64,000 bases of DNA from an uncultured Dokdonella sp. (lineage in GTDB: Bacteria; Pseudomonadota; Gammaproteobacteria; Xanthomonadales; Rhodanobacteraceae), in the NCBI GenBank assembly GCA_964390215.1, contig CAYMHF010000006.1, positions 2,509 through 66,508 on the forward strand, read 5' to 3'. Position 1 is the first letter of the stretch; each line of letters opens with the position of its first letter. Shown here in pieces: positions 2,933 through 45,726 of the stretch. The notes beneath the pieces are model-generated. The model made no database searches. It saw only the letters and a list, made by a program, of their open reading frames with translations, and was not told where the DNA came from. Position numbers and translations under genes: made by a program.

Positions 2933-3010
2933 GGCCTCGGATGGATCTTCGCCTGACCCGGGTTGCGCTCGTTGATCCAGCGGTTGAAAGCGTTGCACGA
3001 TTTCGATCGC

Positions 3011-3280
3011 CTAGATTTCCGGCCCGGCATCGCCCTCGATACGCTGCACGCGCTGGCGGTACTCGCGCACGTTGTCGCCACGAATGCGCGTCTCCTGCGT
3101 GCCTTTCACCTCGTCGACTTTCTGCTCCGAGCCGGTCACCGGCTTGGCATCGACGGCCGTTTCGCGCTCGAAGGCGTGCGATTTGTCGGTGTTGCGGTAG
3201 TACCGATACAGCAACCAATACAGCCCCGTTGCGCCGGCTGGGCCCATCGCAAGCAGCCATAGTCCGCCATCATCGCTCAT
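3011..3280 (-). CDS. Small single-TM hypothetical protein (89 aa)
   Basis: MSDDGGLWLLAMGPAGATGLYWLLYRYYRN; ATG overlaps the stop of the upstream gene (ATGA coupling). Confidence 0.8.
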   Translation of the reverse strand: MSDDGGLWLLAMGPAGATGLYWLLYRYYRNTDKSHAFERETAVDAKPVTGSEQKVDEVKGTQETRIRGDNVREYRQRVQRIEGDAGPEI

Positions 3281-4587
3281 GACGTGCTCCCAAGTATCCA
3301 GAGTGCAATCCCTTCGAGAAAGGTACCGACGGTGAGCGCGGCCGTGAGCAGCTTCCACTGCTGCACCGGCACGCTGCCCATGGTCTCGCCGGTGCGGCCG
3401 TTGACCGCAATGTAGTGCAGCATGCCGCCGTTGCCGCCGGTCTCGTGGTAGGAATAGAGCCAGACCGGCAGGTACATCGACACCCAGCGCGTGCCGTGGA
3501 CATTGAGGCCTTCCTGCTCCCAGCGCACACCGCGATCGTAGCGTTCCACCGATTCCTCGACCTGGGCGCGGGCGATCGACAGCAACTGCTCCTCCAGACG
3601 TGGGCGCAGCTGCTCCACATCCTGATTGCGTTTTTCCGTGCTGAAGCCCGCCAGGAAGGACGCATTCCACTTCACCGCGTTCTTGGTGTCGAATGGCAGG
3701 ATCGTGTTGATGATGTTGTTGGTGTTGGTGCGCGTATCCAGGTTGCCGCGTTCGCGGGAGGATTCCAGCGGCAGATCGTCCACGGTGAAATCCACGTGCC
3801 GTCGAACCTGGTACACATCGGCATCGTAGTAGGTCTTCTTCTTGTCGCCGCTGCCCCTCGTGTACTCGCGGGTCTTGATCTCGCCCTTGCCGGCGACGTC
3901 GGCACTCGCGTTGCCATCGACGATCATGTACGGCAGGTACACGCCGATGACGTTCTCGGGCGTGAATTCTTCCTTGAATTCCTTCAGTGCGAATAGCCGC
4001 CGCTTGTCCACGAACTGGCGAATGCGCGCGACCGCGTCGTCCTTCTTGATGTGGAAGGGCAGTACCGCGTCGGGCACCGCGCCGTTCGCCACCTGCTCGT
4101 TGACGCCGAAGACGTGGCGGCACCAGTGGCAGCGCGCCGTCATCGCGTTTTCGATATTGACCGTTACCTCGGCGCCGCAGCCGGTGCACTTGAAGCTCAT
4201 CAGACTGGCGGTGTCGGTGGCGATGTCCCGCGCGCCGGAGGCAATGATCGTGCCCTTGAGCTGGTCGATGCCTGCGCCGAGACCGAATTCCTCCTCGATG
4301 CGCATGCCCTGCCATTCGTTGCGGCAGTACAGGCAGATCAGCAGATCGCTGCCCGGCTTCTGCCGGATTTCGGTTGAGCCGCATTTCGGGCAGCGGTTGA
4401 GACCGTCCTTGAGCTCCTTGGCGGACGTGTCGATGGCGACCGGGTCGGGCGCCAGCAATTCATCGCGGATCGGTTCGGGCAGGGTGGCCGGATCGATGGG
4501 AAAACTGCCCGGCACGGGTGGCACGTCCTGAGGAGAACCAGGGCCGGTGTAGGGCGGCACTGGCGGCGGATTGTTGGCATTCGACAT
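3277..4587 (-). CDS. Multi-zinc-ribbon protein with C-terminal TM (YdjG-like)
   Basis: CPKC/CLYC/CTGC/CHWC pairs; GVYLPY, YLPVW and VNGRTGE motifs; C-terminal TM. Confidence 0.85.
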   Translation of the reverse strand: MSNANNPPPVPPYTGPGSPQDVPPVPGSFPIDPATLPEPIRDELLAPDPVAIDTSAKELKDGLNRCPKCGSTEIRQKPGSDLLICLYCRNEWQGMRIEEEFGLGAGIDQLKGTIIASGARDIATDTASLMSFKCTGCGAEVTVNIENAMTARCHWCRHVFGVNEQVANGAVPDAVLPFHIKKDDAVARIRQFVDKRRLFALKEFKEEFTPENVIGVYLPYMIVDGNASADVAGKGEIKTREYTRGSGDKKKTYYDADVYQVRRHVDFTVDDLPLESSRERGNLDTRTNTNNIINTILPFDTKNAVKWNASFLAGFSTEKRNQDVEQLRPRLEEQLLSIARAQVEESVERYDRGVRWEQEGLNVHGTRWVSMYLPVWLYSYHETGGNGGMLHYIAVNGRTGETMGSVPVQQWKLLTAALTVGTFLEGIALWILGSTS

Positions 4588-4608
4588 GGTCGTTCCGCGG
4601 TTGGTGGC

Positions 4609-5760
4609 TTACAGACCCAGTGCCTTGGCTTTGGCCGTGTCGTAGTCGGCCTGCGTGATCAGGCCGAGATCGAGCATTTCCTTGGCCTTCTTCAATTTCG
4701 CGATCGGGTCTTCGGCGGCCGGCGCGGCCGGTGCAACCGGTTGCTGCAAGCTGCCAATGCCGCCCATCATGCCCGAGGCCATGCCCAGGCCCATCATGCC
4801 CGCCGCGCCGGTGTTTTCGCCGGCCGACTGCATGCCTTGTGCGACGCTGGCCTGCAGATTGGAATTGCCACGCGCACCCGACAGCGCGTCGGCGCGTTGC
4901 ACGGTCTTGAGCAGTTCGCGCGTGTTTGCGTCGTACTCGATGGAAACGATGGCGGTCTTGACGATGGCCAGGCCACGATCGGACTTCCACTGATAGGCAT
5001 TCTCCACCGCTTCGGACAGGCTCCTGGCAAAGCCGATCGAATCCTGCTGCAGCTTGGTAATGCGATTGCCCTTGCTCGGGTCGTTCGAGTACAGGCTGAA
5101 CGCCGGTGCGAGTGACCCCACCACTTCATTGAAGAGTTGGCTGGCGGCGGCATTGTCGATGTCGGTGAAATCGAAGACCTGTCCGGGCTGAAGATACTTG
5201 GCCGGCACGAAGTTCTTCACGAACAGGATCGGATCGACGATCTTCATCGTGTAGGAGCCGCGCGTTACCGCGCCGACCTGGGTGCCGAGGAAGCCGTCAT
5301 CCCAGTAGATTTCCGATTGCGTTCCGAAGCGGTTGTCCGGCAGTTCCTTCAGCGAGACAAAGAAAGCGGCCTGCTGCGAGCCCGGCTGGCCGCCGAACTT
5401 GAAACGCTCCCAGCTCTGCATGAGGAGCGAATCGACCAGACCGCCGCCCGAGAAGATCGACTTCGAGTTGAGGTCGTCCGATCGCCACTCGTACCCGCCA
5501 GGCTCGGCCGCGAAGCCGGTGATCGCGCCATCCTGGAACAGCAGCAACCCGTAACCTTCGGGAACGACGATCTTCGAACCATTGGTAATGATGTTCGAGG
5601 AGCTCTTTGTATTCGATCCGCGTCCGGCATTGGTGCCTTGTGGAACTGCAGCGAACAGTGCCGCCGTCCCCGCCAAACCAGCCGGAACCGTGTAGAAATC
5701 CTTCCACTGGTCGGCGAGTGCGCCGCCAATCGAACCCACCACTGCCTGAACAAGACCCAT
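4609..5760 (-). CDS. SPFH-domain protein with C-terminal SHOCT (YdjI-like)
   Basis: ADQWKDF, IITNGSKIVVPEG, ERFKFGG; C-terminal KLKKAKEMLDLGLITQADYDTAKAKAL; GGAGAG before ATG 5760. Confidence 0.88.
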   Translation of the reverse strand: MGLVQAVVGSIGGALADQWKDFYTVPAGLAGTAALFAAVPQGTNAGRGSNTKSSSNIITNGSKIVVPEGYGLLLFQDGAITGFAAEPGGYEWRSDDLNSKSIFSGGGLVDSLLMQSWERFKFGGQPGSQQAAFFVSLKELPDNRFGTQSEIYWDDGFLGTQVGAVTRGSYTMKIVDPILFVKNFVPAKYLQPGQVFDFTDIDNAAASQLFNEVVGSLAPAFSLYSNDPSKGNRITKLQQDSIGFARSLSEAVENAYQWKSDRGLAIVKTAIVSIEYDANTRELLKTVQRADALSGARGNSNLQASVAQGMQSAGENTGAAGMMGLGMASGMMGGIGSLQQPVAPAAPAAEDPIAKLKKAKEMLDLGLITQADYDTAKAKALGL

Positions 5761-6116
5761 GACATCTCTCCGCGATTCGTGGCTGGGCACCGCGCCCACC
5801 ATGCCGGGCGCACTATACATTCCCTGACAAAAACAGGGGCAGTCGCCTCGATGTCTGGCGCAAGGGGAATGGCGGCAACTTACGGCCTTGACTGCCGGAA
5901 CGCCGACAATTTCTGGCGGGCAATGGGTCGCCGGAATCGTTGCCGTGCGGGTTTTGTGCGGATGCAAGCATGGGTTTGTCTTCTGATTCTTGCAGCCGTC
6001 GAGGCTGGCGCGGACTGGATCAGTTGCGAACCCTCCCTGGGCAGTGAATGCGCATGAATCGGCCGCAGCCAGCGAGTATAGTTGAGCGCAACATGGCCAC
6101 CTTTGGATAAAGCGCG

Positions 6117-7013: not shown

Positions 7014-8639
7014 ATGCCAGCCGCCAAACGCCCCGTTGGAATGCTCGTGTCGCAGTTGGGTGCGCTGATGGCGCTACTGGCATCGCCACTGTGGGCCGCG
7101 GGTGCGTCGCTGCCTTCCTCGCCCGAGTCGTACTTGAGTCAGTCGGCACGCGTGCGCCAGTCGACCGATCGACCCTGGGCGCCTGAAGCGGGGCAGTTGG
7201 GCAATCTCCGACATCTGCAGATCACCGCGGCGGACTGCGTCGTGCGTGTCGTTTCCGGCAGCGAGAATCGCGTGTTTCCGGGTACGCGCGAGGTTATCGT
7301 GGTCGAGCGCTCGCGCGTGCTCGACGCCAATCCGAACGAGCAGCCGGCGCCGCGCGACGTGGTCCTGGCCACCGATCATGCTCAGGCCTGTCCGGGTCTC
7401 GGCTCGTGCGGCGTGTCGATCACGCCGGTGCGGCGGTCGTCGGACAATGTCGTCACGGGCGCGGCGTGCTTCACCGTGCAGCTCGCCACCGGGCACGATT
7501 TGCTGCTGGGTGGCGATGGTCTTTCCCTGCTTGTCGATCAGGTGCGCCAGCCGACGCTGCGGATCACACTCAATCCGAGTGCCGGCCTGCGCGTGTGGCT
7601 GGAGCAGGTCAACATCGGGCTGCTTTCGATCCACGCCAACGCGCCGGCGCGCGTGGGCGGCAGCGGCCAGGTTGATTTTCTGCAAGTGGGCAGCTCAGAC
7701 AGCGGAAGTGCGATGTTCCTTCAGGGTTTCCATGCGTCCCAAGTCGGTGTTTCGGCGACAACGACGGGTACCCAGTGGGCAATCCGCATCGATGCCGATA
7801 CCAAGGCGGGCTACTACCAGCCGGCGCGCGCGCCCGGAGCGGTTGCCAAACGATACCCTATCGAAATCGAAGGATCGATCAATCGCCTCGAGGTGCCGGT
7901 GGGTCAGGTGGATCCGCAGCCATTAAGTGAGGCCACGCGAGTCGCGACGCGTGCGCTGCGTGACGAGGTACTTCGGCGTGCAGGCCCAGCGCCGGTACTC
8001 CCGACTTCCGACTCGAGCTTGCCTTCGGCCACGGTCGCCGCAGAGGCGCTCGCACAGGATCCGAGCGAACGGGTCGCCGACGTCGTCGCACGGTATCTGC
8101 CGGCATCGATCCGCATCACCAAGGTTGCATTGTGGAAAAAGGGTGCGCGTCTTGAAGGCATGGCACCTGATCCTGCTTCGGCGCGTGAAGTCGCGCGTCT
8201 GCTCAATGAATCCGGCGAGTTCACCTATGTTGACGGCGGAAGCTCGCTACCCCGCGATGGCGGCCACAAGTTCTCCGTGCAACTGCGCTTCGCGTGCGAG
8301 ATTCCGGGTCAGCGCAGCGTATGTCCGGCCGGCGATCCGGCCGCATCAGGCGCCTACAGCGAGGTGCAGGTGCGTGGTGTGATCGACAACTTGCTAGGTC
8401 CGCTGGTGATCGTGCACGAAGTACGCCTGGACGGTGACAAGATTCATTTGAAAGCCGTCGCGCCAAACGAAGTGGAGGCCCGCCAAGCCTTGGAACGTCT
8501 GGGCCAGCGCAAGGATTTCATCCGCCTGTCGACGTCGATGCACGGACCCTCCGCCAGCGGCTCGTCCGTGAACATCAGCGCAGTACTGAACCTCTACTGC
8601 GCAATTCCGCCAAAGGCCGATGGCATTTGCATCCCTTGA
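7014..8639 (+). CDS. Exported hypothetical protein with two C-terminal PilN-like repeats
   Basis: 541-aa ORF with signal-like N-terminus (start may be 7041 or 7068); duplicated C-terminal domain, each copy ending in a Cys pair. Confidence 0.7.
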   Translation: MPAAKRPVGMLVSQLGALMALLASPLWAAGASLPSSPESYLSQSARVRQSTDRPWAPEAGQLGNLRHLQITAADCVVRVVSGSENRVFPGTREVIVVERSRVLDANPNEQPAPRDVVLATDHAQACPGLGSCGVSITPVRRSSDNVVTGAACFTVQLATGHDLLLGGDGLSLLVDQVRQPTLRITLNPSAGLRVWLEQVNIGLLSIHANAPARVGGSGQVDFLQVGSSDSGSAMFLQGFHASQVGVSATTTGTQWAIRIDADTKAGYYQPARAPGAVAKRYPIEIEGSINRLEVPVGQVDPQPLSEATRVATRALRDEVLRRAGPAPVLPTSDSSLPSATVAAEALAQDPSERVADVVARYLPASIRITKVALWKKGARLEGMAPDPASAREVARLLNESGEFTYVDGGSSLPRDGGHKFSVQLRFACEIPGQRSVCPAGDPAASGAYSEVQVRGVIDNLLGPLVIVHEVRLDGDKIHLKAVAPNEVEARQALERLGQRKDFIRLSTSMHGPSASGSSVNISAVLNLYCAIPPKADGICIP

Positions 8640-8854: not shown

Positions 8855-9688
8855 TCAGTAGCCGCTGCCTGCACCCGGGCGCTCGCGCAGCATCTTGAAG
8901 CGGGAGAATCCCAGGGCGCCGAGCTGGTCGAGATCGAAGTCGATCATGCCGATTGCCTCGCGCGCCTTGAACGGCACCGAACACAGCAACTTCGCGGGAC
9001 TTCCGATCTTGTTTGCCTTGGACACCGAGGGGTAGCAGATCTTGGACGGGCAGGTCAGCGCGCAGCCGGCGTTGGCAAACAGGGTGATGCGCGACTTGTC
9101 GCCGATTGCGCGCAGAAACTCCTCATCCTGGTTGATGCGCATTGGCAGCACGATGGTGTCGTACAGCTCCATCGCGCGGTCGATTTTCTCGTGGCTGTCG
9201 ATCTCCTTGATGACGCTGGCCTCGATGCGGTAGTGCGGAAAATCGCGCCGGATCCAGCGCGCGAGCTTGTCGTTGGTGACGATGACCGCGTTGCCTGGCA
9301 GGTGGTACTTTTCGAACATCCAGGCATAGCTGGCGTATTCGTCCTCATCCACGGTGTGGTTGGTCAGCGGGATACGCACGCCAATGTGGTGCGCGTACAT
9401 CGCCTGCACATCGGCATCGGTAAGTTGAGGGACGCGAAAGAAACGTCCGCCATACAGCGTGCAGCGCTCGACGAAACCAAACAGGCTGTCCACCTGCGCC
9501 AGCGGCATGCTCGGATACGAAGTGCGCAGGAATGCCATTACCGGCAGCTCAGTCGGTTTGCCGCGCACCGACAGCGTGAAGTCGAAATGAGGCTGATAGC
9601 GCACGCCTGCAGCCGGCGAACGAGCCAGGGCAGGGCCGGTGTGGATCGTCGGCCCGGGCGGGACGAGCTTCGGCGTGTTGGCGTTCAT
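8855..9688 (-). CDS. Peptidase U32-like putative Fe-S protein (277 aa)
   Basis: YGGR near N-terminus, NAVIVTNDKLARWIRRDFP, ANAGCALTC...C...C cysteine cluster, GFSRFKM; ATG 9688. Confidence 0.7.
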   Translation of the reverse strand: MNANTPKLVPPGPTIHTGPALARSPAAGVRYQPHFDFTLSVRGKPTELPVMAFLRTSYPSMPLAQVDSLFGFVERCTLYGGRFFRVPQLTDADVQAMYAHHIGVRIPLTNHTVDEDEYASYAWMFEKYHLPGNAVIVTNDKLARWIRRDFPHYRIEASVIKEIDSHEKIDRAMELYDTIVLPMRINQDEEFLRAIGDKSRITLFANAGCALTCPSKICYPSVSKANKIGSPAKLLCSVPFKAREAIGMIDFDLDQLGALGFSRFKMLRERPGAGSGY

Positions 9689-9760
9689 CGAGGTACCGCG
9701 AGGCGATCGGGGGCGGGCAATCGGTGACGGCGAGTCTGCATCGCCGGCACTGGCCCGGCC

Positions 9761-9774
9761 TTGATCGAGGTCAA
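9761..9774. promoter_or_regulatory. FNR/Anr-type box upstream of the U32-like gene
   Basis: TTGAT-CGAG-GTCAA, extended palindrome CCTTGA...TCAAGG, 73 bp upstream of ATG 9688. Confidence 0.75.
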
Positions 9775-10041
9775 GGCGCACAACTCCCGCGCGTTGGGAA
9801 CCCGCGGGTCGCCCAACCCGGACATTTTGCTGCTGCCATGTGGATGCGGGGCGGAATACTTGTCTCCGGGGTTTTGGTCTCGGCACAAGCCGGGTTGTCG
9901 GTCATGTGGGACATTTCGCAACGCGGATAGCGGCTGATCAAGGAACACTGCTCAGAGTACGCGTTGATGCGCCTGGAAAATCGGCTCCAGCTTTGGTTCC
10001 CGTGATTCGAGTGACACGGCACACGGTCGGGAATGCTGGTT

Positions 10042-24438: not shown

Positions 24439-24452
24439 TTGACTCGAATCAA
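24439..24452. promoter_or_regulatory. FNR-type box upstream of moeA
   Basis: TTGAC-TCGA-ATCAA. Confidence 0.65.
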
Positions 24453-24633: not shown

Positions 24634-25947
24634 GTGATCCGCTATGGCGCTGCTCTGCAGCAGATTCTCGCGCAATGTGCGCCGCTGCCGCCGCATGAAC
24701 TACCTCTGGCGCAGGCGCTTGGAGGCATTCTTGCCGAGAATGTGCGCGCAGCGGCGGATCTGCCGCCGTTCGACAACTCGGCCATGGATGGTTTCGCCCT
24801 CGTCTGCGCTGGCAAGACGCTGCCGGCCGGGAGCGAATTCACGGTAGTCGGATCACAGGCCGCGGGTGACGGCAGCAATCGCGCGCCGATACCGCCGGCG
24901 GGCGGCGACGCCTGCGAGATCATGACCGGGGCCAGCCTGCCAGCTGGTTTCGATGCGGTTATTCCGATCGAGCAGGTATGCATTCTCGAACAGATCGAGG
25001 AGCGTCCCTGGCGCATCCGTCTCGATGCGCCGGTGCAGCCGGGCGCGCATGTGCGTCGCCATGGCCAGGATGTGCCCAGGGGACAGTGCGTATTGCACGC
25101 GGGTTCAACAGTCACGCCTGCCGCGCACATGCTGCTGGCCGCGCTGGGCATGGCCTCGGTCGCTGTTCGCGGACCTGTTCCGGTGGCCCTGCTCAGCACC
25201 GGGCGTGAACTGATCGATGATCCTGGCCAGCCACTTGCCGCGGGCCAGATTCGCAACAGCAACGGGCCTTACCTTTCCGATCGCCTGCGTGAAGCCGGCG
25301 CGCGGGTCGTGCATGCGCAGACTGTCAGCGACGTTCCTGCGGAATTCCTTGCCGCGCTTGAGCGCAGCCTGGCCGCGGGCGCACGGGTGCTGCTGAGCAC
25401 AGGTGCGGTGTCGATGGGACGCCATGATTTCATTGCCGATGCATTGCGCGGGATCGGTGCGCAGATCGTGTTTCACAAGGTTGCGATCCGGCCTGGCAAA
25501 CCGCTGCTTTTCGGGCAACTCCGGGGAGGCCAGTTGTATTTCGGGCTGCCCGGAAACCCGGTCGCCGGTGCGGTCGGCATGCGCTTCTTCGTCGAGCCGG
25601 CGCTGCGTGCCCTGCTTGGCCAGCCATCCGAACAGCCCTTGCGACTGCCGCTGGCCGAAGGCGTGCAGAAGAAAGCAGGCTTTCGCTTTCTGCAGAAGGC
25701 CTGCGTGCAGATCGATGCGGATGCGCGACTCAGCGTACGTCTGCTGCAAGGGCAGGAATCGTTTCGCATCCTGCCGCTGCTGCTTGCCAATGCCTGGGCG
25801 GTGCTTGCGGAAGATGCCCGGTATCTGCCCGCCGGCACCCTGATCGAGGTGCATGGGCTGGAGGGTCGCGGCGTGCTTCTTGATGCCGCACAAGCGCGTG
25901 CTCGCGGCGAGGGCGCGGAGACCGCCAGGACAACGAAGGAAGCGTGA
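24634..25947 (+). CDS. moeA: Molybdopterin molybdotransferase
   Basis: PPFDNSAMDGFA, IMTGA, STGAVSMG, RPGKP, GLPGNP. Confidence 0.95.
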   Translation: MIRYGAALQQILAQCAPLPPHELPLAQALGGILAENVRAAADLPPFDNSAMDGFALVCAGKTLPAGSEFTVVGSQAAGDGSNRAPIPPAGGDACEIMTGASLPAGFDAVIPIEQVCILEQIEERPWRIRLDAPVQPGAHVRRHGQDVPRGQCVLHAGSTVTPAAHMLLAALGMASVAVRGPVPVALLSTGRELIDDPGQPLAAGQIRNSNGPYLSDRLREAGARVVHAQTVSDVPAEFLAALERSLAAGARVLLSTGAVSMGRHDFIADALRGIGAQIVFHKVAIRPGKPLLFGQLRGGQLYFGLPGNPVAGAVGMRFFVEPALRALLGQPSEQPLRLPLAEGVQKKAGFRFLQKACVQIDADARLSVRLLQGQESFRILPLLLANAWAVLAEDARYLPAGTLIEVHGLEGRGVLLDAAQARARGEGAETARTTKEA

Positions 25948-26726: not shown

Positions 26727-28133
26727 ATGGCAAGCACCGGGCAGGAATCGAGGCACGGCCGCAAGGTTCTGCATGACTGGCACCCCGAGGATCCCGCGTT
26801 CTGGTCCGCCAAGGGCAGCAGGATCGCCAATCGCAACCTGGCCATCTCCATTCCCGCGCTGCTGCTCGCATTCGCCATCTGGATGGTGTTTTCGGTGGTC
26901 GTGGTCAGCCTGCCGAAGATCGGTTTCCAGTTCGATACCGATCAGCTGTTCTGGCTGACCGCGCTGCCCGGCCTTTCCGGCGCAACCTTGCGCATCTTCT
27001 ACGCATTCCTGGTGCCGATCTTCGGTGGTCGGCGCTGGACAGCGATTTCTACCGCGTTGTTGATGATTCCCGCGCTGTGGCTGGGCTTTGCCGTGCAGGA
27101 CACGGCGACACCGTTCTGGCACTTCATGGCGATTGCCATCCTGTGTGGCCTGGGTGGTGGCAACTTTGCCTCGTCGATGTCGAATATCTCGTTCTTCTTT
27201 CCCAAGGCGAAGCAGGGCTATGCGCTGGGCATGAACGCCGGTCTCGGCAATGTCGGTGTATCGGTCACCCAGTTCTTCATTCCGCTGGTGATCACGGCGG
27301 GTGTGTTCGGGACGCTGGTCGGTGCGCCGCAAACCACCGCCGATGGCGGCACGCTGTATCTGCAGAACGCGGGCTTCATATGGCTGCCATTCCTGTTCGT
27401 GTGCACGCTGGCGGCATGGTTCGGCATGAACGACCTGGAGGCCGCGCGCTCCAGTTTCGCCGAGCAGTCGGTGATCTTCCGGCGCAAGCACAACTGGCTG
27501 ATCTGCTGGCTTTACACCGGCACCTTCGGCAGCTTCATCGGTTATTCGGCCGGCTTCCCGATGCTGATCAAGACCCAGTTCCCCGACATCAATGCGCTCA
27601 GCTACGCCTTTCTCGGGCCGCTGGTTGGCGCGCTGGCCCGGCCACTCGGCGGCTGGCTGGCGGACAAGCTCGGCGGCGCGATGCTGACGTTCTGGGTATT
27701 CGTGTTGATGACGGTATCGGTTTTCGGCGTCTTGCACTTCCTGCCAGGTAATGGTTCAGCGGGCAACTTCGTCGGCTTCCTGGTCATTTTCATGGTCTTG
27801 TTTGTGTTGACCGGCATCGGCAACGCATCGACTTTCCGCATGATTCCGGTGATCTTTCGCAGCATGCGCGAACGTGAGCTGGGGCCGCAGCCGAGTGCCG
27901 AGGACAAGGCCCTGGCCGCACGCCGCGCTGGAATAGAATCGGCCGCGGTCATCGGATTCTCCTCGGCAGTGGGTGCCTACGGCGGCTTCTTCATTCCCAA
28001 GAGCTACGGTTCGTCGATCGCCCTGACCGGCGGGCCGGAATTCGCGCTTTATGGATTTATTGGCTTTTATTTCACCTGTATCGCGATCACCTGGTGGTGG
28101 TACTTCCGCCGGGGTGCGGAAGCACCTTGCTGA
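26727..28133 (+). CDS. narK: Nitrate/nitrite transporter (NarK2-type)
   Basis: WHPEDPAFW, GGGNFASSMSNIS, FGSFIGYSAGFP, GAYGGFFIP. Confidence 0.95.
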   Translation: MASTGQESRHGRKVLHDWHPEDPAFWSAKGSRIANRNLAISIPALLLAFAIWMVFSVVVVSLPKIGFQFDTDQLFWLTALPGLSGATLRIFYAFLVPIFGGRRWTAISTALLMIPALWLGFAVQDTATPFWHFMAIAILCGLGGGNFASSMSNISFFFPKAKQGYALGMNAGLGNVGVSVTQFFIPLVITAGVFGTLVGAPQTTADGGTLYLQNAGFIWLPFLFVCTLAAWFGMNDLEAARSSFAEQSVIFRRKHNWLICWLYTGTFGSFIGYSAGFPMLIKTQFPDINALSYAFLGPLVGALARPLGGWLADKLGGAMLTFWVFVLMTVSVFGVLHFLPGNGSAGNFVGFLVIFMVLFVLTGIGNASTFRMIPVIFRSMRERELGPQPSAEDKALAARRAGIESAAVIGFSSAVGAYGGFFIPKSYGSSIALTGGPEFALYGFIGFYFTCIAITWWWYFRRGAEAPC

Positions 28134-28206
28134 ACTTTGATATGGTTTTCCGCGTCGAACCGGCCGCAGTGCCTGTTCAACCCGATAATTGCAAGAGGAC
28201 GTCACG

Positions 28207-31200
28207 ATGAGCTATTTCCTTGATCGCCTGCAGTTTTTCAAGCGCGAGCGCACGACTTTCGCCGATGGCCATGGCACCACGCGCAGCGAGGATCGCGACT
28301 GGGAGGATGGCTATCGAGCGCGCTGGCAGTACGACAAGGTCGTGCGTTCCACGCATGGCGTGAACTGCACCGGTTCGTGCAGCTGGAAGATCTACGTCAA
28401 GAACGGCCTGGTCACCTGGGAGACCCAGCAGACCGACTATCCGCGCACGCGCCCGGATCTGCCCAATCACGAACCGCGTGGTTGCCCGCGCGGTGCCAGC
28501 TACTCCTGGTATCTGTACAGCGCCAACCGGCTGAAGTATCCGCTGGTGCGCGGCGCGCTGCTGCGCATGTGGCGCGCGGCGCGCAAGTCGATGTCGCCGG
28601 TCGAGGCCTGGGCCAGCATCGTCGAGGATCCGGTCAAGGCCAGGGAATACAAGACCCGTCGCGGCATGGGCGGCTTCGCCCGCGTGCGCTGGGATGAAGC
28701 CAACGAGATCATCGCCGCCTCGAATCTTTATACGACCAAGCAGTACGGTCCGGATCGCGTGATCGGCTTTTCGCCGATCCCGGCGATGTCGATGATTTCC
28801 TATGCCGCTGGCGCACGCTATTTGTCCTTGCTCGGCGGTGCCTGCCTGTCGTTCTATGACTGGTATTGCGATCTGCCGCCATCCTCGCCGCAGGTCTGGG
28901 GCGAGCAGACCGATGTGCCGGAATCGGCCGACTGGTACAACAGCCGCTACATCATCGCGTGGGGTTCCAATGTGCCGCAGACGCGCACCCCCGACGCCCA
29001 CTTCTTCACCGAGGCACGTTACAACGGCACCAAGACCGTTTCGGTGTGTCCCGACTATTCCGAAGTCGCCAAACTGACCGATCACTGGCTGCATCCCAAG
29101 CAGGGCACCGATGCCGCGCTGGCGTTCGCCTTCGGCCATGTGATCCTGAAAGAATTCCACGTCGACAAGCCCTCGCAGTATTTCACCGACTACTGCCGCC
29201 AGTATTCGGACATGCCGCTGCTGGTGCGTCTGGAAAAGCGCGCTGATGGTCGCCTGGTGCCGGAGCGCTTCCTGCGCGCCAGCGATCTCGGCGGTCTCGG
29301 CGAGGCGAACAATCCCGAGTGGAAGACCCTGGCCTTTGACGAGAACAGCGGTGAGCTGGCGATTCCGAACGGCTCGGTCGGTTTTCGCTGGGGCGAGAAG
29401 GGCAAATGGAACATTGAGCAAAAAGACAGTGCCGGTCGCGAAACCCGCCTGCGTCTAAGCCTCAAGGATTTCGCCCAGGGCATCGAGTCGGTCAGCTTTC
29501 CGTACTTCGGTGGCATCGAGCACGATCACTGGACGTCTTCGAAGTTCGAGGATGTGTTGGAGCGCAATATCCCGGTGCGCAAGCTGCAACTCGCCGATGG
29601 CAAGGAGTGGGCGGTGGCCACCGTCTACGATCTGCTGCTGGCGCAGTACGGAGTCGATCGCGGTTTCGGCGGTGGCAACGTCGCCGCCAGTTTCGATGAC
29701 AATGTGCCGGGCACACCGGCCTGGCAGGAAAAAATCACCGGCGTGCCGCGTCTCGACGTGATCGAAGTCGCCCGCGAGTTCGCCCGTACCGCCGACAAGA
29801 CTCACGGCCGCAGCATGATCATCGTCGGCGCCGGCATGAACCACTGGTTCCACAACGACATGAACTACCGCGGCCTGATCAACATGCTGATCATGTGCGG
29901 TTGCGTCGGTCAGACCGGTGGTGGCTGGGCGCACTACGTCGGCCAGGAAAAATTGCGTCCGCAGACTGGCTGGCAGCCGCTGGCATTTGGCCTGGACTGG
30001 AGCCGTCCGCCACGCCAGATGAACGGCACCTCCTACTACTATTTCAATACCGACCAGTGGCGCTACGAGAAGGTCAGGGTCGAGGAATTGCTGTCGCCGC
30101 TGGCCGACCCGAAGAAATACTCGGGTTCGCTGGCCGACTTCAACCTGCGTGCTGTGCGCATGGGCTGGTTGCCTTGCGCGCCTCAGCTCGACCGCAATCC
30201 GTTGCAGGTCGCCCGCGATGCCGCGAAGTCCGGGCAGTCGGCCGCCGATTACGTGGTCGCCAAGCTGAAGTCGGGTGATCTCGATTTTGCCTTTGCCGAT
30301 CCGGATTCGCCGCAGAACTTCCCGCGTGCCATGTTTGTCTGGCGCTCGAATCTGCTCGGTTCCTCGGGCAAGGGCCACGAGTACATGATGCGGCACATGC
30401 TCGGCACCAAGCATGGTTTGCAGGGCAAGGATCTCGGTGAAATGGGCGAGGTCAAGCCCGAGGAGATCAAATGGCGTGACGAGGCGCCCGAAGGCAAGCT
30501 CGATCTGCTGGTCACCCTCGATTTCCGCATGTGCACCACCGCGCTCTACTCCGATGTGGTGCTGCCGACTGCAACCTGGTACGAGAAGAACGACCTCAAT
30601 ACCTCGGACATGCATCCGTTCATCCATCCGCTGACCCAGGCGGTGGATCCGGCTTGGGAATCACGCAGCGACTGGGACATTTTCAAGGGCATCGCACGCG
30701 CGGTCAGCGAGATGGCGCCCGGCGTGCTTGGCGTCGAACAGGATGTGGTGCTGGTGCCGACCCTGCATGACACCCCGGGCGAACTGGCTATGCCGTTCGA
30801 CGTGCGCGACTGGAAAAAAGGCGAGTGCGAGCCGATTCCGGGCCGAACCATGCCATCGATCAGCGTGGTCGAGCGTGACTATCCCAATCTGTACAAGAAG
30901 TTCACCTCACTCGGGCCCTTGCTCGACAAGCTCGGTAATGGTGGCAAGGGTATCAACTGGGATACCCAGGACGAAGTCGACTTCCTCGGCAAGCTCAACC
31001 GCAGCGTGCGTGAGGAGGGCGTCAGCAAGGGCCGACCGCAGATCGAATCGGCAATCGATGCTTGTGAAGTGGTTCTGCATCTGGCCCCGGAAACCAACGG
31101 TCACGTCGCGGTCAAGGCCTGGGAGTCACTCGGCATCTTCACCGGCCGTGACCACACCCATCTGGCCAAGGGCAAGGAACACGAGGCGATCCGCTTCCGC

Positions 31201-31950
31201 GACATCGTCGCGCAGCCACGCAAGATCATTTCTTCGCCGATCTGGTCGGGTCTTGAGGACGACCACGTCAGCTACAACGCCGGCTACACCAATGTCCACG
31301 AGTTCATTCCATGGCGCACGCTGACCGGTCGTCAGCAGTTCTACCAGGATCACGAGTGGATGGTTGCCTTTGGCGAAGGCTTCATGCAGTACCGGCCACC
31401 GGTCGACACGAAGACCATCAAGCCGCTGCTCGACAAACGCGGCAACGGCAACAAGGAGATCGTGCTCAACTGGATCACGCCGCATCAGAAGTGGGGTATC
31501 CACAGCACCTACAGCGACAATCTGATCATGCAGACACTGTCGCGTGGCGGGCCGATTGTGTGGGTCAGCGAGGACGATGCGCGCGCGGCCGGTATTGTCG
31601 ACAACGACTGGATCGAGCTGTTCAATGTCAATGGCGCGATCACCGCACGCGCGGTGGTCAGTCAGCGCGTGATGCCGGGCATGGCGATGATGTATCACGC
31701 CCAGGAACGCATCATCAATATTCCCGGTTCGGAAATTACCGGTACCCGTGGCGGCATCCACAACTCGGTGACCCGCACCGTGGTCAAGCCGACGCACATG
31801 ATCGGTGGCTACGCGCAGTTGTCCTACGGGTTCAACTACTACGGTACCTGCGGCACCAACCGCGATGAGTTCGTCATCGTGCGCAAGATGAAGATGATCG
31901 ACTGGCTGGATGGCGAAGCCCCAGCGAAGACCGCCGAGGAGATTGCGTAA
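28207..31950 (+). CDS. narG: Respiratory nitrate reductase alpha subunit
   Basis: RSTHGVNCTGSCSW, FYDWYCDLPP, TPHQKWGIHSTY. Confidence 0.99.
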   Translation: MSYFLDRLQFFKRERTTFADGHGTTRSEDRDWEDGYRARWQYDKVVRSTHGVNCTGSCSWKIYVKNGLVTWETQQTDYPRTRPDLPNHEPRGCPRGASYSWYLYSANRLKYPLVRGALLRMWRAARKSMSPVEAWASIVEDPVKAREYKTRRGMGGFARVRWDEANEIIAASNLYTTKQYGPDRVIGFSPIPAMSMISYAAGARYLSLLGGACLSFYDWYCDLPPSSPQVWGEQTDVPESADWYNSRYIIAWGSNVPQTRTPDAHFFTEARYNGTKTVSVCPDYSEVAKLTDHWLHPKQGTDAALAFAFGHVILKEFHVDKPSQYFTDYCRQYSDMPLLVRLEKRADGRLVPERFLRASDLGGLGEANNPEWKTLAFDENSGELAIPNGSVGFRWGEKGKWNIEQKDSAGRETRLRLSLKDFAQGIESVSFPYFGGIEHDHWTSSKFEDVLERNIPVRKLQLADGKEWAVATVYDLLLAQYGVDRGFGGGNVAASFDDNVPGTPAWQEKITGVPRLDVIEVAREFARTADKTHGRSMIIVGAGMNHWFHNDMNYRGLINMLIMCGCVGQTGGGWAHYVGQEKLRPQTGWQPLAFGLDWSRPPRQMNGTSYYYFNTDQWRYEKVRVEELLSPLADPKKYSGSLADFNLRAVRMGWLPCAPQLDRNPLQVARDAAKSGQSAADYVVAKLKSGDLDFAFADPDSPQNFPRAMFVWRSNLLGSSGKGHEYMMRHMLGTKHGLQGKDLGEMGEVKPEEIKWRDEAPEGKLDLLVTLDFRMCTTALYSDVVLPTATWYEKNDLNTSDMHPFIHPLTQAVDPAWESRSDWDIFKGIARAVSEMAPGVLGVEQDVVLVPTLHDTPGELAMPFDVRDWKKGECEPIPGRTMPSISVVERDYPNLYKKFTSLGPLLDKLGNGGKGINWDTQDEVDFLGKLNRSVREEGVSKGRPQIESAIDACEVVLHLAPETNGHVAVKAWESLGIFTGRDHTHLAKGKEHEAIRFRDIVAQPRKIISSPIWSGLEDDHVSYNAGYTNVHEFIPWRTLTGRQQFYQDHEWMVAFGEGFMQYRPPVDTKTIKPLLDKRGNGNKEIVLNWITPHQKWGIHSTYSDNLIMQTLSRGGPIVWVSEDDARAAGIVDNDWIELFNVNGAITARAVVSQRVMPGMAMMYHAQERIINIPGSEITGTRGGIHNSVTRTVVKPTHMIGGYAQLSYGFNYYGTCGTNRDEFVIVRKMKMIDWLDGEAPAKTAEEIA

Positions 31951-33497
31951 TGAAAGTCCGCGCACAGATAGCCATGGTCTTGAACCTCGACAAGTGCATC
32001 GGTTGCCACACTTGCTCGATCACCTGCAAGAACGTCTGGACCTCACGCGAAGGGGTCGAATACGCCTGGTTCAACAATGTCGAGACCAAGCCCGGCGTCG
32101 GCTATCCGAAGGAATGGGAAAATCAGGAAAAATGGAACGGCGGCTGGGTGCGTACCCGCGCCGGCAAACTGGTGCCCAAGGCCGGTGGTCGCTGGCGCAT
32201 GCTGGCGAAGATCTTCGCCAACCCGGATCTGCCGCAGATCGACGACTACTACGAGCCGTTCGATTTCGACTATCAGCATCTGCATGAGGCACCCGACCTC
32301 AAGCACCAGCCCACCGCGCGGCCGCGTTCGCAGATCACCGGCCAGCGCATGCAGAAGATCCATTGGGGTCCGAACTGGGAGGAAATTCTCGGTACCGAGT
32401 TCGCCAAGCGCGCCAAGGATGTCAACTTCAATGGCGTGCAGAAGGAAATCTACGGCGCGTTCGAGAAGACCTTCATGATGTACCTGCCGCGCCTGTGCGA
32501 GCACTGCCTGAATCCGGCCTGCGTGTCAGCCTGTCCATCGGGTGCGATCTACAAGCGCGAGGAAGACGGCATCGTCCTCATCGACCAGGACAAGTGCCGC
32601 GGCTGGCGCATGTGCGTATCGGCGTGCCCGTACAAGAAGATCTACTACAACTGGAAGAGCGGCAAGTCGGAAAAATGCATTTTCTGTTATCCGCGCATCG
32701 AGATGGGCGAGCCGACGGTCTGCTCGGAAACCTGTGTCGGACGCATCCGCTATCTCGGTGTGATGCTGTACGACGCCGATCGCATCCAGGAAGCGGCGTC
32801 GGTGCCGGCCGAGAAGGATCTGTATCAGGCCCATCTCGACATTTTCCTCGATCCGTTCGATCCCAAGGTGATCGAGGCGGCGCGCAAGGAAGGCATTCCG
32901 GATAGCTGGCTGGAAGGTGCCAAGGCATCGCCGGTGTACAAGCTGGCGATCGACTGGAAGCTGGCACTGCCGCTGCATCCGGAATACCGCACCTTGCCGA
33001 TGGTCTGGTACGTGCCGCCACTGTCACCGATCCAGTCGGCTGCCGAGCGAGGCCGTATCGGCATGACGGGCGAGCTGCCGGATATTGCCTCGCTGCGCAT
33101 TCCGGTGCGCTATCTGGCCAACATGCTGACCGCCGGCGATGAAGCGCCGGTGATCCGCGCGCTGGAAAGGATGATGGCAATGCGCGCCTGGCGCCGGGCC
33201 AAGAACGTCGACGGCGTCGAAGACCTCAAGGTGCTTGAGCAGGCCGGTCTCACGGTCGCCCAGGCTGAAGACATGTATCGCTATCTTGCCATCGCCAATT
33301 ACGAAGATCGCTTCGTCATTCCCTCCGCGCATCGCGAATATGCCGATGATGCCTACGGCGAGCGCGGCGGCTGTGGCTTCACCTTTGGCAACGGCTGCAG
33401 CGGTGACAGCCCGGCCGACATCTTTGGTGAGCGGCGCATCACCACCTACAGCGTGCCGCCGAATCGCCAGGAGAAGAAAGAGGAGGTGACCTCGTGA
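31950..33497 (+). CDS. narH: Respiratory nitrate reductase beta subunit
   Basis: MKVRAQIAMVLNLDKCIGCHTCSITCK and further Fe-S motifs. Confidence 0.99.
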   Translation: MKVRAQIAMVLNLDKCIGCHTCSITCKNVWTSREGVEYAWFNNVETKPGVGYPKEWENQEKWNGGWVRTRAGKLVPKAGGRWRMLAKIFANPDLPQIDDYYEPFDFDYQHLHEAPDLKHQPTARPRSQITGQRMQKIHWGPNWEEILGTEFAKRAKDVNFNGVQKEIYGAFEKTFMMYLPRLCEHCLNPACVSACPSGAIYKREEDGIVLIDQDKCRGWRMCVSACPYKKIYYNWKSGKSEKCIFCYPRIEMGEPTVCSETCVGRIRYLGVMLYDADRIQEAASVPAEKDLYQAHLDIFLDPFDPKVIEAARKEGIPDSWLEGAKASPVYKLAIDWKLALPLHPEYRTLPMVWYVPPLSPIQSAAERGRIGMTGELPDIASLRIPVRYLANMLTAGDEAPVIRALERMMAMRAWRRAKNVDGVEDLKVLEQAGLTVAQAEDMYRYLAIANYEDRFVIPSAHREYADDAYGERGGCGFTFGNGCSGDSPADIFGERRITTYSVPPNRQEKKEEVTS

Positions 33498-37871: not shown

Positions 37872-38369
37872 ATGATGAATCGAAATGTTTCCGCTGATCT
37901 CGCTGCGCTGTATCCGGCGCTCAAGCAGTACAGCTTGGAGGTGCGCAAGGATCGGCGACTGTCGGTACCCCCTGCGGACTCGGTAACGATCCATAGCACG
38001 GAGTGTGGGAGTCAGTTGACTCTCGATGCGCGAATAGAGAACGCGCGGGTCAGCGAGATCGGCTATCGCGTGCGAGCCTGTTCGTTGGGACAGGCCTCGA
38101 CGGCCATCTTCGCCAGGCATGCATTGGATTTGGATCTGGCCACTCTGCGGCGCCTGGAAGAACAGGTGCAGGCCATTCTTGATGGCAATGCGACTTACTG
38201 CGAGTGGAGAGAAATGGAAATATTCTCATTGATCAAGGGCGTTCCTTTGCGTCATGGGTCGATTCTGCTGCCGTTTCAGGCAATGCGGAAACTCTTCAAT
38301 CGGGCTGGCCAGGCGCTACCCGAGACTATGGAAAATCCGCTTCAATCACCGTCTACTACGGGAGTATAG
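37872..38369 (+). CDS. NifU/IscU-like scaffold-family protein
   Basis: STECGSQLTLD, RACSLGQAS, RHGSILLPF. Confidence 0.75.
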   Translation: MMNRNVSADLAALYPALKQYSLEVRKDRRLSVPPADSVTIHSTECGSQLTLDARIENARVSEIGYRVRACSLGQASTAIFARHALDLDLATLRRLEEQVQAILDGNATYCEWREMEIFSLIKGVPLRHGSILLPFQAMRKLFNRAGQALPETMENPLQSPSTTGV

Positions 38370-38374
38370 GAATA

Positions 38375-39568
38375 ATGAGCATCCAGGACATCGTCGTTGT
38401 CGGCGGAGGAATTGGCGGCACCATGACCGCCAACAACCTTGTCGCCAAACTGCTGCCGGAGATTCGTGCCGGCAAGGCACGCGTCAGTCTGATCTCCAAC
38501 AGTCCATGGCACTACTACAAGCCGGCCTTCATGTACGTGGCGTTCGGCATGTTCTACAAGAACGAACTGCGTCGACGCTTGCACACGCTGCTGCGACCGG
38601 AAGTGAACCTGCTGCTGGACGAGGTGCAGGGGTTTGATTTCAAGGACAGCCGTCTGCGCCTGGCTTCGGGCAAGGATCACCGTTACGACTATCTGGTCGT
38701 CTCAACCGGCTGCATTCCCTCGCCCGAGCGCATTCCCGGGTTGAAGGAAGCCGGTGATCATTTCTATCAACACGATCCGGCCATGCAGCTTTATCACAAG
38801 CTGCGCACCATCGAGAAAGGCCGCATCTTCATCGGCGTGACCTTTCCGCAGACGCCCAACGTGCCGCACCAGTGCGGCATCGCGCCGATGGAAACCACGC
38901 TGATGCTGGATGATTTCCTGCGCAAGCGCGGTGTGCGCGACCAGATCGAGATCGTCTATACCTATCCGACCGTCTCGCAACTGTTGCGCAACTGCCTGTT
39001 CCTGCAACGACCGGTTGGCGAAGTGCTGCCGACCGTGTTCGAGTCGAAGGGCATCAAGCACCAGCGCGGCTTCACCCTTTCGCGGGTCGATGCCGAAGCC
39101 AAGGTGGCCTACTCGGAAGAGGGCGAGTCCACTGAATTCGACATCCTCATGCAGACCCCGCCGATCCGTGCGGTCGACGCGGTGCTCAACTCGGGCATCT
39201 CCCAGGCCCCCAACAACGAGGGCTGGTTGCCGACGGATCGCGAGAGCCTGCAGTTGGAAGGATTCGCCAACGTGTTCGTGATGGGCGATACCGTCGATCT
39301 GCCGATCAGCAAAGCTGGCGGCAGTTGCCACAACCAGTCGCCGGTGATCTGCGACAACATTGCCGGATTGATGCGCGTGGGCAATACCGTGGCCGCGTAT
39401 GACGGCAAGGTGCAGGCAATCGCGCAGATGGGTCTCGATGCCGGCATGCCACTCTGGTACGACTACGATTCCGATGTGATACCGACACCGGCGACCAAGA
39501 TTGGCGGCCTGATGCGCAAGGCATTCAATCGCGGCGTGTATTGGTCCGTAGCCCGCGGCGTGGTTTGA
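38375..39568 (+). CDS. Sulfide:quinone oxidoreductase-like flavoprotein (type III-like)
   Basis: VVVGGGIGG, HYYKPAF, HQCGIAPME, GDTVDLPISKAG, YDGK. Confidence 0.8.
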   Translation: MSIQDIVVVGGGIGGTMTANNLVAKLLPEIRAGKARVSLISNSPWHYYKPAFMYVAFGMFYKNELRRRLHTLLRPEVNLLLDEVQGFDFKDSRLRLASGKDHRYDYLVVSTGCIPSPERIPGLKEAGDHFYQHDPAMQLYHKLRTIEKGRIFIGVTFPQTPNVPHQCGIAPMETTLMLDDFLRKRGVRDQIEIVYTYPTVSQLLRNCLFLQRPVGEVLPTVFESKGIKHQRGFTLSRVDAEAKVAYSEEGESTEFDILMQTPPIRAVDAVLNSGISQAPNNEGWLPTDRESLQLEGFANVFVMGDTVDLPISKAGGSCHNQSPVICDNIAGLMRVGNTVAAYDGKVQAIAQMGLDAGMPLWYDYDSDVIPTPATKIGGLMRKAFNRGVYWSVARGVV

Positions 39569-39582
39569 ACAAGGAGAACAAC

Positions 39583-40023
39583 ATGACTACCGAAATGACC
39601 CAGAACACGTCGTTTGATGCGCTGCTGCGCAGCAACCCGCAGTTGAATGATCCGGCTACGGTGCAAGGCATTGCCGATCTGGTCGGCAAGCTTGCGCCAC
39701 TGCTGCAAGGCCAGCGCTTGCACAATCTGGTTGATCTGCTGTCGGCAGTATCGGATGTCGTCGACATGGCCGATGACGCGATGATCCAGAAGTTGATGAA
39801 GGGCTACGAAAACGTCGTCGCAGGCGCATTCAACATCAGTAATGCGATGGACTATGCCATTGCCCAGGCGGGTGCGGAAAAAGAGCCGCCCACCTTGTGG
39901 CAGGCGCTGCGGCGACTCAATCGCGATGACGATGCACGCCGTGGGCTGGCGATGGCGCTGTCCATGCTTGGCCTGCTCGGCCGACAGGCGCGCGAGGGAG
40001 CAGCCGTCCTGCCGGACGATTGA
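39583..40023 (+). CDS. DUF1641-like helical protein
   Basis: PPTLWQALRRLNRDDDARRGL; AAGGAG RBS; usual partner of SQR-like genes. Confidence 0.75.
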   Translation: MTTEMTQNTSFDALLRSNPQLNDPATVQGIADLVGKLAPLLQGQRLHNLVDLLSAVSDVVDMADDAMIQKLMKGYENVVAGAFNISNAMDYAIAQAGAEKEPPTLWQALRRLNRDDDARRGLAMALSMLGLLGRQAREGAAVLPDD

Positions 40024-44454: not shown

Positions 44455-44468
44455 TTGATGCAGGTCAA
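44455..44468. promoter_or_regulatory. FNR-type box upstream of nadA
   Basis: TTGAT-GCAG-GTCAA. Confidence 0.72.
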
Positions 44469-44619: not shown

Positions 44620-45726
44620 TCAGCCATCCGGGATAGCGAGTGACGGCTGCCGACGCAAGGCATGCCACAGCGCACGCAGCATGCCGACAAATGTCGTCAG
44701 CCAGGCACAGGCCGCCAGCAGCAGAAATACCTGCGGCAGCCAGGCGAGGAAATCAAAGCCCATTGCCAGGCGCATTTCATGGGTGCAGGCGGCGTACATG
44801 CCGAGTGGAAACACCGCACCCCAGTACAACGGATCGTAGCTGAGCGGAAAGCGCTTGTAGATGTGACGCCAGACGCCAAGCACCAGCAGCATCGGTATCC
44901 ACCAGGTGCCGGTTGCCCAGTAGAACACGGTGAATCCTTTCAGGAACGGCACCAGTGATTCGAGGAACGGGGCGTCCCTGGTGTTGACGAGCAGCAGCGA
45001 TCCGGCCAGGGTCGAGATTGCCATCGCGCCCATGTTGATCCAGTACGGCGGCGACAGATCGGCTGGCGAGAAGCGAAAGAAGGTGTAGCGATAGAAAATC
45101 AGTGACATCATCCAGATGTAGAGCATGCCGCCCCAAAGCCACATCGACAGGGCGAAGAAATTGAGCTCAAGCTTGCCGGGTTGGCCGATTCGCGCCGCCA
45201 GCAGCGCACTCAGCACAGCCAGTGACTGGGTTGCGACTACCGCCAGCAACCAGCCTCCGTTGATGCCTTCGTTGAGTGGCGGCTTGTGTTCCTTGACGGT
45301 GAGCAAGGTGAAGAACGTATAGGTCAGGGTCAGCCAGAGCAGCACGGCCAGGCCCCACAGAACCGTTGCCGCGGGGATGCTGTCGGCGAGCAGGAGCGCC
45401 TGACTGCCGAGCAGGCTGGTGGCCGCGACCAGGGTAAAGAAACCGGGACCACGCAGATGGTCGGCCATGTCGCCGAAAAAAACCTTGCGGTACCGAGCAA
45501 GGCGCAGGCCATAAAGCGTCCACAGCACTCCGTAGAACACGATATTCAGCGCAAACAGGATGCGCGCCGGCACGCCGAAGCCGAGCAGGTTGGCGGCCAA
45601 CGAGACGATGCCGGTCGACATGACCAGGCCGAAATACGCGGGCGAAAGATGCTTCAGTGCGGCCATGAAGCGCGTGGCGGATGCATCGTTGGCAGCCATG
45701 TCGTCGCTTGTGTGCCGGGTTGCCAC
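44620..45726 (-). CDS. TDT/SLAC1-family anion transporter
   Basis: PAYFGLVMSTGIVS, GGWLLAVVATQS, PPYWINMGAMAI, WGAVFPLGMY. Confidence 0.9.
   Translation of the reverse strand: MATRHTSDDMAANDASATRFMAALKHLSPAYFGLVMSTGIVSLAANLLGFGVPARILFALNIVFYGVLWTLYGLRLARYRKVFFGDMADHLRGPGFFTLVAATSLLGSQALLLADSIPAATVLWGLAVLLWLTLTYTFFTLLTVKEHKPPLNEGINGGWLLAVVATQSLAVLSALLAARIGQPGKLELNFFALSMWLWGGMLYIWMMSLIFYRYTFFRFSPADLSPPYWINMGAMAISTLAGSLLLVNTRDAPFLESLVPFLKGFTVFYWATGTWWIPMLLVLGVWRHIYKRFPLSYDPLYWGAVFPLGMYAACTHEMRLAMGFDFLAWLPQVFLLLAACAWLTTFVGMLRALWHALRRQPSLAIPDG

Follow-up and report, generated by a model that had tools for sequence, protein, structure and literature searches.

A solo gene for a 277-residue protein behind an FNR-type box

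The gene under study lies on the minus strand at positions 8855..9688 of the window, by which we mean the whole 64,000-nucleotide stretch of DNA that was analysed. Translation from 9688 to 8855 on that strand yields the 277-amino-acid protein that had been described from its motifs in a first-pass annotation, with YGGR at residues 79–82 (9443..9454, minus strand), GCALTCPSKIC at residues 208–218, LLC at residues 234–236 and GFSRFKM at residues 260–266 (8891..8911, minus strand). It comprises a low-complexity, genus-specific N-terminal tail of about 33 residues followed by a 244-residue domain predicted to form a U32-type TIM barrel. The methionine start is the same, or falls at an aligned position, in 10 close homologues. 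A 343-residue version beginning at an in-frame GTG at 9886, which would place the box described below inside the gene, was ruled out by the starts and stops of the homologues. The annotation had also remarked on the lack of a ubiT, ubiU or ubiV partner, and indeed none was recognised among the ORFs adjoining the gene, the ubiU-ubiV pair of this genome being located on contig C26. The gene is real, solo and ordinary in appearance. Convergent with it, at 7014–8639 on the plus strand, runs a gene for a 541-residue secreted-looking orphan protein with a sub-threshold PilN-like stretch, which has a 67% identical neighbour in locus L001.

Upstream of the start codon, the sequence TTGATCGAGGTCAA at 9761–9774 forms an FNR-type box, TTGAT-N4-GTCAA, which has no strand of its own, differs by one mismatch from TTGAT-N4-ATCAA and is separated from the ATG by 72 nt; both the box and its extended palindrome CCTTGA...TCAAGG (9759–9776) are present as first reported. 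One-mismatch sites of this type occur 8 times in the 64-kb window as against 1.35 times in shuffled sequences, and 183 times in the genome, and judged apart from its homologues the box would be a weak candidate for an FNR site. A CAGACT hexamer at 9733..9738 on the minus strand is predicted to act as the −10 element in class II activation by FNR, with transcription predicted to start near 9726, and a (C/T)AGACT hexamer stands exactly 22 nt downstream of the box in this genus and in locus L006. A box-to-hexamer spacing of 22 nt corresponds to the geometry of class II FNR promoters. A scan for sigma-70 promoters found no −35/−10 pair. Because the upstream in-frame extension is stopped before it reaches the box in two of the three relatives checked, and because the spacing between box and hexamer is conserved, we regard the box as regulatory and not coding DNA.

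The protein has a predicted U32 fold and forms a separate subfamily

Sequence searches of Pfam, NCBIfam, PHROGs and the PDB with the 277-residue protein gave no match above threshold. The Peptidase_U32 profile PF01136 reached 10.8 bits (E 0.3) against a curated cut-off of 22.4 bits and was weakly matched by 17 of 40 family members, with a best E of 0.0075. The DUF3656 and U32_C domains were absent in the Pfam search, and the NCBIfam model for UbiU, NF047963, gave no match, while the true UbiU of this genome on C26 scores 531 bits. An AlphaFold model of residues 34–277 (pLDDT 96.8) found as its top match in Foldseek the structure 5D88 of the U32 protein Mk0906 (E 8.4e-8, TM 0.68; next match 1.2e-3), and the same structure came first in VIA (Z 17.4, rmsd 3.5, 218 aligned; next Z 11.3), so the U32/TIM-barrel similarity on which the original idea hinged was found by both methods. 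Mk0906 thus stands well clear of all other structures, but its identity to the protein is 12–14% and the sequence searches gave no match to it. In profile alignments, which were built from small alignments of genome-mined sequences, the protein aligned full-length and collinearly with RlhA-like proteins (E 3e-5), and less well with TrhP-like proteins (E 0.04), UbiU (E 0.08) and UbiV (E 0.7). As judged from its model, the 277-residue protein is a U32-fold protein; yet, given the structural match together with the failed sequence criteria, it is neither a PF01136 member by cut-off nor a UbiU, UbiV, TrhP or RlhA, and the earlier proposal of a separate U32 subfamily holds.

The family gathered around it numbers 1,488 hits among 2,451 candidates, falling into 412 clusters at 50% identity, with a typical member of about 242 amino acids. 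A search of plasmids gave no match and a search of annotated phages a single weak, unannotated hit. Three more distant U32-like proteins were noted in loci L175 (1396–2268), L176 (261–1220) and L089 (4893–5792). In the first two, C-x3-C-x6-H-Y replaces C-x3-C-x4-C-Y and a glutamate is retained before the first cysteine, and all three may, on their sequences, form a bridge between this family and canonical U32 proteins.

The predicted ligands of a [4Fe-4S] cluster are Cys209-x3-Cys213-x4-Cys218-x17-Cys236 (8981..9064, minus strand). All four cysteines, on whose conservation the first proposal had staked itself, are kept in 244 of the 247 members that cover them, and they align with the U32 cysteine region in the loop after a late barrel strand, so that they agree with U32 at the level of the fold. 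It is likely that they bind a [4Fe-4S] cluster. Arg42, Arg82, Ser158 and Lys265 are 99–100% conserved in the family; of these, Arg82 of YGGR (99%) aligns with a conserved arginine in the first barrel loop of RlhA, TrhP and UbiU, and Lys265 of GFSRFKM, which is essentially invariant, with the lysine of the U32 KIEGR motif. The spacing here is CX3CX4CX17C, and the CX6CX15CX3/4C of the RlhA/TrhP-type U32 hydroxylases was not found. The annotation had rightly noted that C-x6-C-x15-C-x3-C is absent, but had ascribed that spacing to UbiU, whereas it belongs to other U32 families and the motif reported for UbiU is CX6CX16CX38C (PMC6747719). Relative to UbiU and UbiV (CX6CX16CX38C and CXnCX12CX3C), the protein thus shares the U32 barrel, four conserved cysteines, FNR-type control sequences and, as proposed below, the substitution for an O2-dependent hydroxylase, but differs in motif, in its weak profile match and in having no UbiT or UbiV nearby. 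With RlhA (rRNA ho5C2501) and TrhP (tRNA ho5U34) it shares a collinear barrel, in which Cys218 aligns with the second cysteine of their C-x6-C and Cys236 with the third, but it lacks their Glu161/162 as well as DUF3656 and U32_C, the typical family member has a length of only about 242 residues, and the partners of its family are sulfotransferases, described below, not RNA-modification genes. The missing glutamate is described as essential both in RlhA (E161; PMC5727448) and in TrhP (E162; PMC6599085); in the register given by the profile alignment with RlhA-like proteins, its column is occupied in the family by Thr (53%), Arg (19%), Ile (18%) and Val (8%).

These residues bear on whether the protein is an enzyme of this type at all. 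A hydroxylase activity is likely, but a U32-fold protein might instead bind metal in another capacity, for instance by serving sulfotransferases in a redox or accessory function, or as a zinc-binding protein. Such a role would fit the absence of the essential glutamate, the low identity to 5D88 and the non-canonical cysteine motif, and direct in vitro hydroxylase activity is described as not yet shown even for RlhA and TrhP (PMC10990095). It would leave hard to explain the FNR-type control and the interchange with an oxygenase that are set out below, and the barrel-top Arg, Asn, Ser and Lys align with those of the hydroxylating U32 families. We consider a non-hydroxylase role quite unlikely.

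Conservation of the FNR-type box extends over more than one branch of the family

Boxes with at most one mismatch were sought in the stretch of 400 nt that precedes the conserved core of each homologue. A box was present in 24 of 83 rows when the window and the loci of this genus were included, and in 22 of 79 homologous loci when the window's own locus and three genus loci were excluded, two of which duplicate L001 and L002. Of the 80 GTDB loci, one had too little upstream DNA to be counted. Sixteen of the 22 boxes are perfect and located 47–77 nt upstream. The same search gave 0/82 downstream of the genes, 3/67 far upstream, 10/473 at neighbouring genes and 0/17 at PF05118 genes. Locus L182, found later, carries a 14-mer identical to that of the window directly upstream of its homologue. 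In a quick tree, in which the L075 row is almost empty and the long branches of fused proteins are unreliable, the box-bearing genes comprise a clade of 17 members that is mainly Caulobacterales, the genes of this genus and others scattered among gammaproteobacteria. A single clade of box-bearing genes was rejected (AU p 8e-6; 16 versus 29 rows), the group being defined by the trait but set after the first tree had been seen. The conservation that had been proposed as a check on the box is therefore borne out, at 22/79 loci against 10/473 neighbouring genes and on more than one branch; the box is absent from about 70% of loci, among them all loci of strict anaerobes. This genome encodes two FNR-type regulators with the cysteine motif, both on contig C13. 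The one run used to look for expression had coverage on the flanks and in 13 out of 30 bins, a pattern that carries no information on induction.

The control region recalls that of ubiUV, which in E. coli is reported to be Fnr-activated via a weaker site (PMC10470549), and a one-mismatch box also precedes the ubiU gene of this genome on C26. The resemblance would suit a function like that of UbiU/V, TrhP and RlhA, in making quinones anaerobically or in hydroxylating RNA. So would the finding that UbiU/V is present in 6 of 24 genomes of this genus and that these 6 include all three other carriers of the gene. Against such a function, the genome already has its own ubiU-ubiV pair, which accounts for its two PF01136 matches, and ten carriers with the FNR box or a solo gene (G042-44, G046, G053, G055, G060, G064, G082 and G089) have no PF01136 match. 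Moreover, no ubi or RNA-modification gene recurred among the 150 neighbour proteins scanned of 240 selected, and the absent DUF3656 and U32_C domains count against it too. We regard a quinone or RNA function as very improbable. The narrower idea of a partner role beside UbiU/V is likewise unlikely in view of the separate ubiU-ubiV pair and the carriers that have no PF01136 match.

The U32-like domain is fused to, and encoded beside, sulfotransferases

A domain scan covered the 22 representatives of at least 400 residues among the 150 listed, together with 12 shorter ones. Twenty of the 22 proved to be fusions with a sulfotransferase domain (Sulfotransfer_1, _2 or _3, on either side of the U32-like domain), one carried TPR and one DUF4915/TIGR03032, while the 12 shorter proteins gave no match above cut-off; a further search for longer proteins gave three hits, all three with sulfotransferase domains. 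Within about 6 kb of the gene, in the best 80 of 210 GTDB loci, a sulfotransferase was encoded in 30, a PF05118-type dioxygenase in 11 and CysD in 8, with some partner gene in 36 and none in 44; the neighbour profiles were built from fetched sequences, some with seeds from the same loci, and Pfam searches of representatives agreed with the assignments. The window itself has no such partner gene near the 277-residue gene. Sulfotransfer_3 matches number 0–19 per carrier genome, with at least one in 47 of 50 carriers versus 2 of 14 control genomes, and from this range we calculate by our own arithmetic that adjacency by chance would occur at a rate of roughly a few percent.

In Chlorobiaceae the gene order is an exported GLUG-repeat protein, a sulfotransferase, the U32-like gene and usually cysD-cysN, and five of the six genomes searched contain a single Sulfotransfer_3 match. 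The U32-like gene is accessory there, with two close and three distant matches in 81 genomes. Four viral loci were found and two were read; in our reading of their sequences the gene follows fibre-like structural genes. Accompanying it in these phage islands (L090:414-6748 and L093:297-8961) are an APS kinase gene, genes of the sulfotransferase type and several genes for 2OG-Fe(II) oxygenases, a content compatible with a possible cassette for modifying the virion surface. A metagenome scan with P0174 gave one locus, with a sulfotransferase only. The setting differs in L003, where the cluster is of the CoA-ligase/glycosyltransferase kind, and in L042, where it is of the radical-SAM/PqqD kind. 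Across loci, the neighbours that recur beside the U32-like gene encode exported proteins with a high content of Gly, Ser, Thr, Asn and Asp.

Several individual loci are also worth recording. In a Geobacter locus (L042:1281-9148) the U32-like gene stands amid radical SAM/SPASM genes and a gene for a PqqD-type chaperone, a composition that suggests peptide modification. In four Caulobacterales loci (L007, L014, L016 and L025, at about 3000–5900) two pentapeptide-repeat genes precede the U32-like gene, and L007 and L025 have curlin-repeat genes as well. In L088 (G000:C19:54506-55792) a stand-alone gene of the DUF4915/TIGR03032 type follows that of a 550-residue secreted-looking protein; P0157 joins the same domain to the U32-like one, and no paper on the DUF4915/TIGR03032 family was found in the literature searched.

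The U32-like gene and a PF05118 dioxygenase share partners and have complementary distributions

The PF05118 (Asp_Arg_Hydrox) 2OG-Fe(II) dioxygenases occupy the same slot in fusions and neighbourhoods, beside the same sulfotransferase subfamilies, as the U32-like domain, but they are O2-dependent and of unrelated fold. In this genome, a cluster on contig C27 (L087, G000:C27:33000-42000) encodes a TonB-receptor-like protein, a TPR-sulfotransferase, a Sulfotransfer_2 protein and a PF05118 dioxygenase, whose nearest solved relatives are proline 3-hydroxylase (1E5R) and proline cis-4-hydroxylase (4P7W); its Sulfotransfer_2 protein is 50% identical to the one that is fused with the U32-like domain in P0168. 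All nine other FNR-box genomes opened (L094-97, L100-104) contain a PF05118-Sulfotransfer_3 fusion, the sulfotransferase part of which is 35–49% identical (E 1e-48 to 1e-71) to those of the U32-like fusions P0174, P0199 and P0237. In L064 a sulfotransferase of the same type is encoded unfused, directly upstream of the U32-like gene, in a genome with no PF05118 match.

We surveyed PF05118 in 50 carrier genomes (50 of the 80 loci), one sub-cut-off match being scored as absent. It was present in 17 of 17 genomes with the FNR box, in 3 of 21 sulfotransferase-linked genomes that have no box and in 7 of 12 with neither feature, and in none of 11 genomes of Chlorobiaceae, Geobacter and Smithella/Syntrophaceae, which we take to be strict anaerobes. 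The Fisher test for the contrast (p 4e-8) treats kin as independent and most of the genomes are incomplete MAGs; the value is overstated because of this kinship and these gaps, because PF05118 occurs widely (in 33 of 40 relatives) and because anaerobes are without dioxygenases anyway. Of 121 evenly drawn Caulobacterales genomes, four carry the gene; these four, which are probably close kin and one of which is a seed, were all among the 12 genomes with that PF05118 subfamily. Within this genus the gene was found in 3 of 36 other genomes; among the 24 profiled, four have both UbiU/V and Sulfotransfer_2, and three of these four carry the gene versus none of the other 20. The distributions of the U32-like gene and PF05118 are complementary.

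A proposed role in a hydroxylate-then-sulfate pathway

The reading that we favour, and which strikes us as somewhat more probable than not, is that the 277-residue protein acts as an FNR-induced, O2-independent stand-in for the PF05118 dioxygenase in a pathway that hydroxylates and then sulfates its target, possibly exported proteins. In anoxia, FNR would bind at about −41.5 and induce the U32-like gene; the four cysteines would hold a [4Fe-4S] cluster in the U32 barrel, the oxygen atom would come from prephenate, as proposed for UbiU/V, and the new hydroxyl group would then be sulfated from PAPS by a sulfotransferase. In this genome the partners would act in trans from the C27 cluster. Facultative organisms would possess both enzymes, the U32-like one being encoded by a solo gene that FNR controls, and anaerobes together with some others the U32-like enzyme alone, inside the cluster. 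The weakest step is the target; exported proteins or peptides are the likeliest candidates, such as a TonB receptor, a two-partner-secretion exoprotein, an adhesin or a phage fibre, our guess being based on the composition of the recurring exported neighbours. Pairs of O2-independent and O2-dependent enzymes have precedents in UbiUV versus UbiIHF and in TrhP versus TrhO (PMC10990095; for the latter pair also PMC6599085). The link to sulfotransferases and PF05118 leads away from the quinone and RNA assays that the first-pass annotation had proposed.

Against a stand-in role speak the missing glutamate and the non-canonical cysteine spacing, the lack of any nearby partner gene in 44 of the 80 loci and in the window, and the different partners in L042 and L003. 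The gene also sits beside 2OG oxygenases at 11 of the 80 loci and at the two phage loci, an arrangement that would fit sequential steps as well. Moreover, characterised U32 enzymes are reported to hydroxylate aromatic rings, and the mechanism proposed for them to require one (PMC10990095), whereas proline hydroxylases act on aliphatic C-H bonds, so chemistry equal to that of PF05118 would be a real stretch. The boldest form of the proposal, in which a prephenate-using U32 Fe-S enzyme hydroxylates an unactivated aliphatic carbon of exported proteins prior to their sulfation, and so would be the first O2-independent counterpart of the Asp/Asn/Pro-type 2OG-Fe(II) enzymes, is in our opinion possible but doubtful.

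The aromatic chemistry of known U32 enzymes would sit more easily with an O2-independent hydroxylase of the sulfation module that has a substrate or site of its own, such as an aromatic residue, a small molecule or a glycan, and works alongside PF05118. The adjacency to PF05118 genes, the several 2OG oxygenases around the gene in phages and the fusions with three different sulfotransferase families all agree with that arrangement. It accords poorly with the lack of PF05118 in 18 of the 21 sulfotransferase-linked genomes that have no box, the 18 counting 9 of the 12 genomes outside the strict anaerobes, with the occurrence of FNR control where PF05118 is present, and with the exchange of partners by one sulfotransferase subfamily; on balance we judge a separate substrate unlikely.

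The substrates of U32 oxidases given in the literature consulted are ubiquinone and RNA only (PMC11574389, PMC10990095), and most U32 subfamilies are listed there as having no assigned function (PMC10990095). The present family lies below the Pfam cut-off and would thus be expected to be missing from the Pfam-based classification of U32 into 12 subfamilies. In the literature searched, which leaves most subscription journals outside, we found no description of this family or of a link to sulfation, nor of the product of the TonB receptor/TPR-sulfotransferase/PF05118 clusters. The interchange with a dioxygenase and the conserved FNR box were likewise not found in our look-ups. The family would offer a specific third arena for prephenate-type hydroxylation beyond quinones and RNA, and a handle on those widespread clusters. 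Being small, soluble and single-domain, under predicted FNR control and with named partners, an enzyme of this kind should be an easier target in vitro than UbiU/V. If the protein truly replaces a proline/Asp-type dioxygenase, an Fe-S barrel would carry out aliphatic C-H hydroxylation free of O2. In the boldest form of the proposal, bacteria and phages would modify proteins by an undescribed pathway whose first step exists in an aerobic and an anaerobic version that can replace each other.

Other features of the window

The organism had been called a nitrate respirer, which is upheld by the respiratory nitrate reductase genes narK-narG-narH at 26727–33497 on the plus strand of the window. They are preceded by moeA (24634–25947), upstream of which lies a one-mismatch FNR-type box at 24439–24452. 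Another one-mismatch box, at 44455–44468, is intergenic and lies beside a gene resembling tellurite-resistance/dicarboxylate transporters (44620–45726). At 38204–40023 on the plus strand, a gene resembling type III sulfide:quinone reductases, with a match below cut-off, is accompanied by a small downstream ORF.
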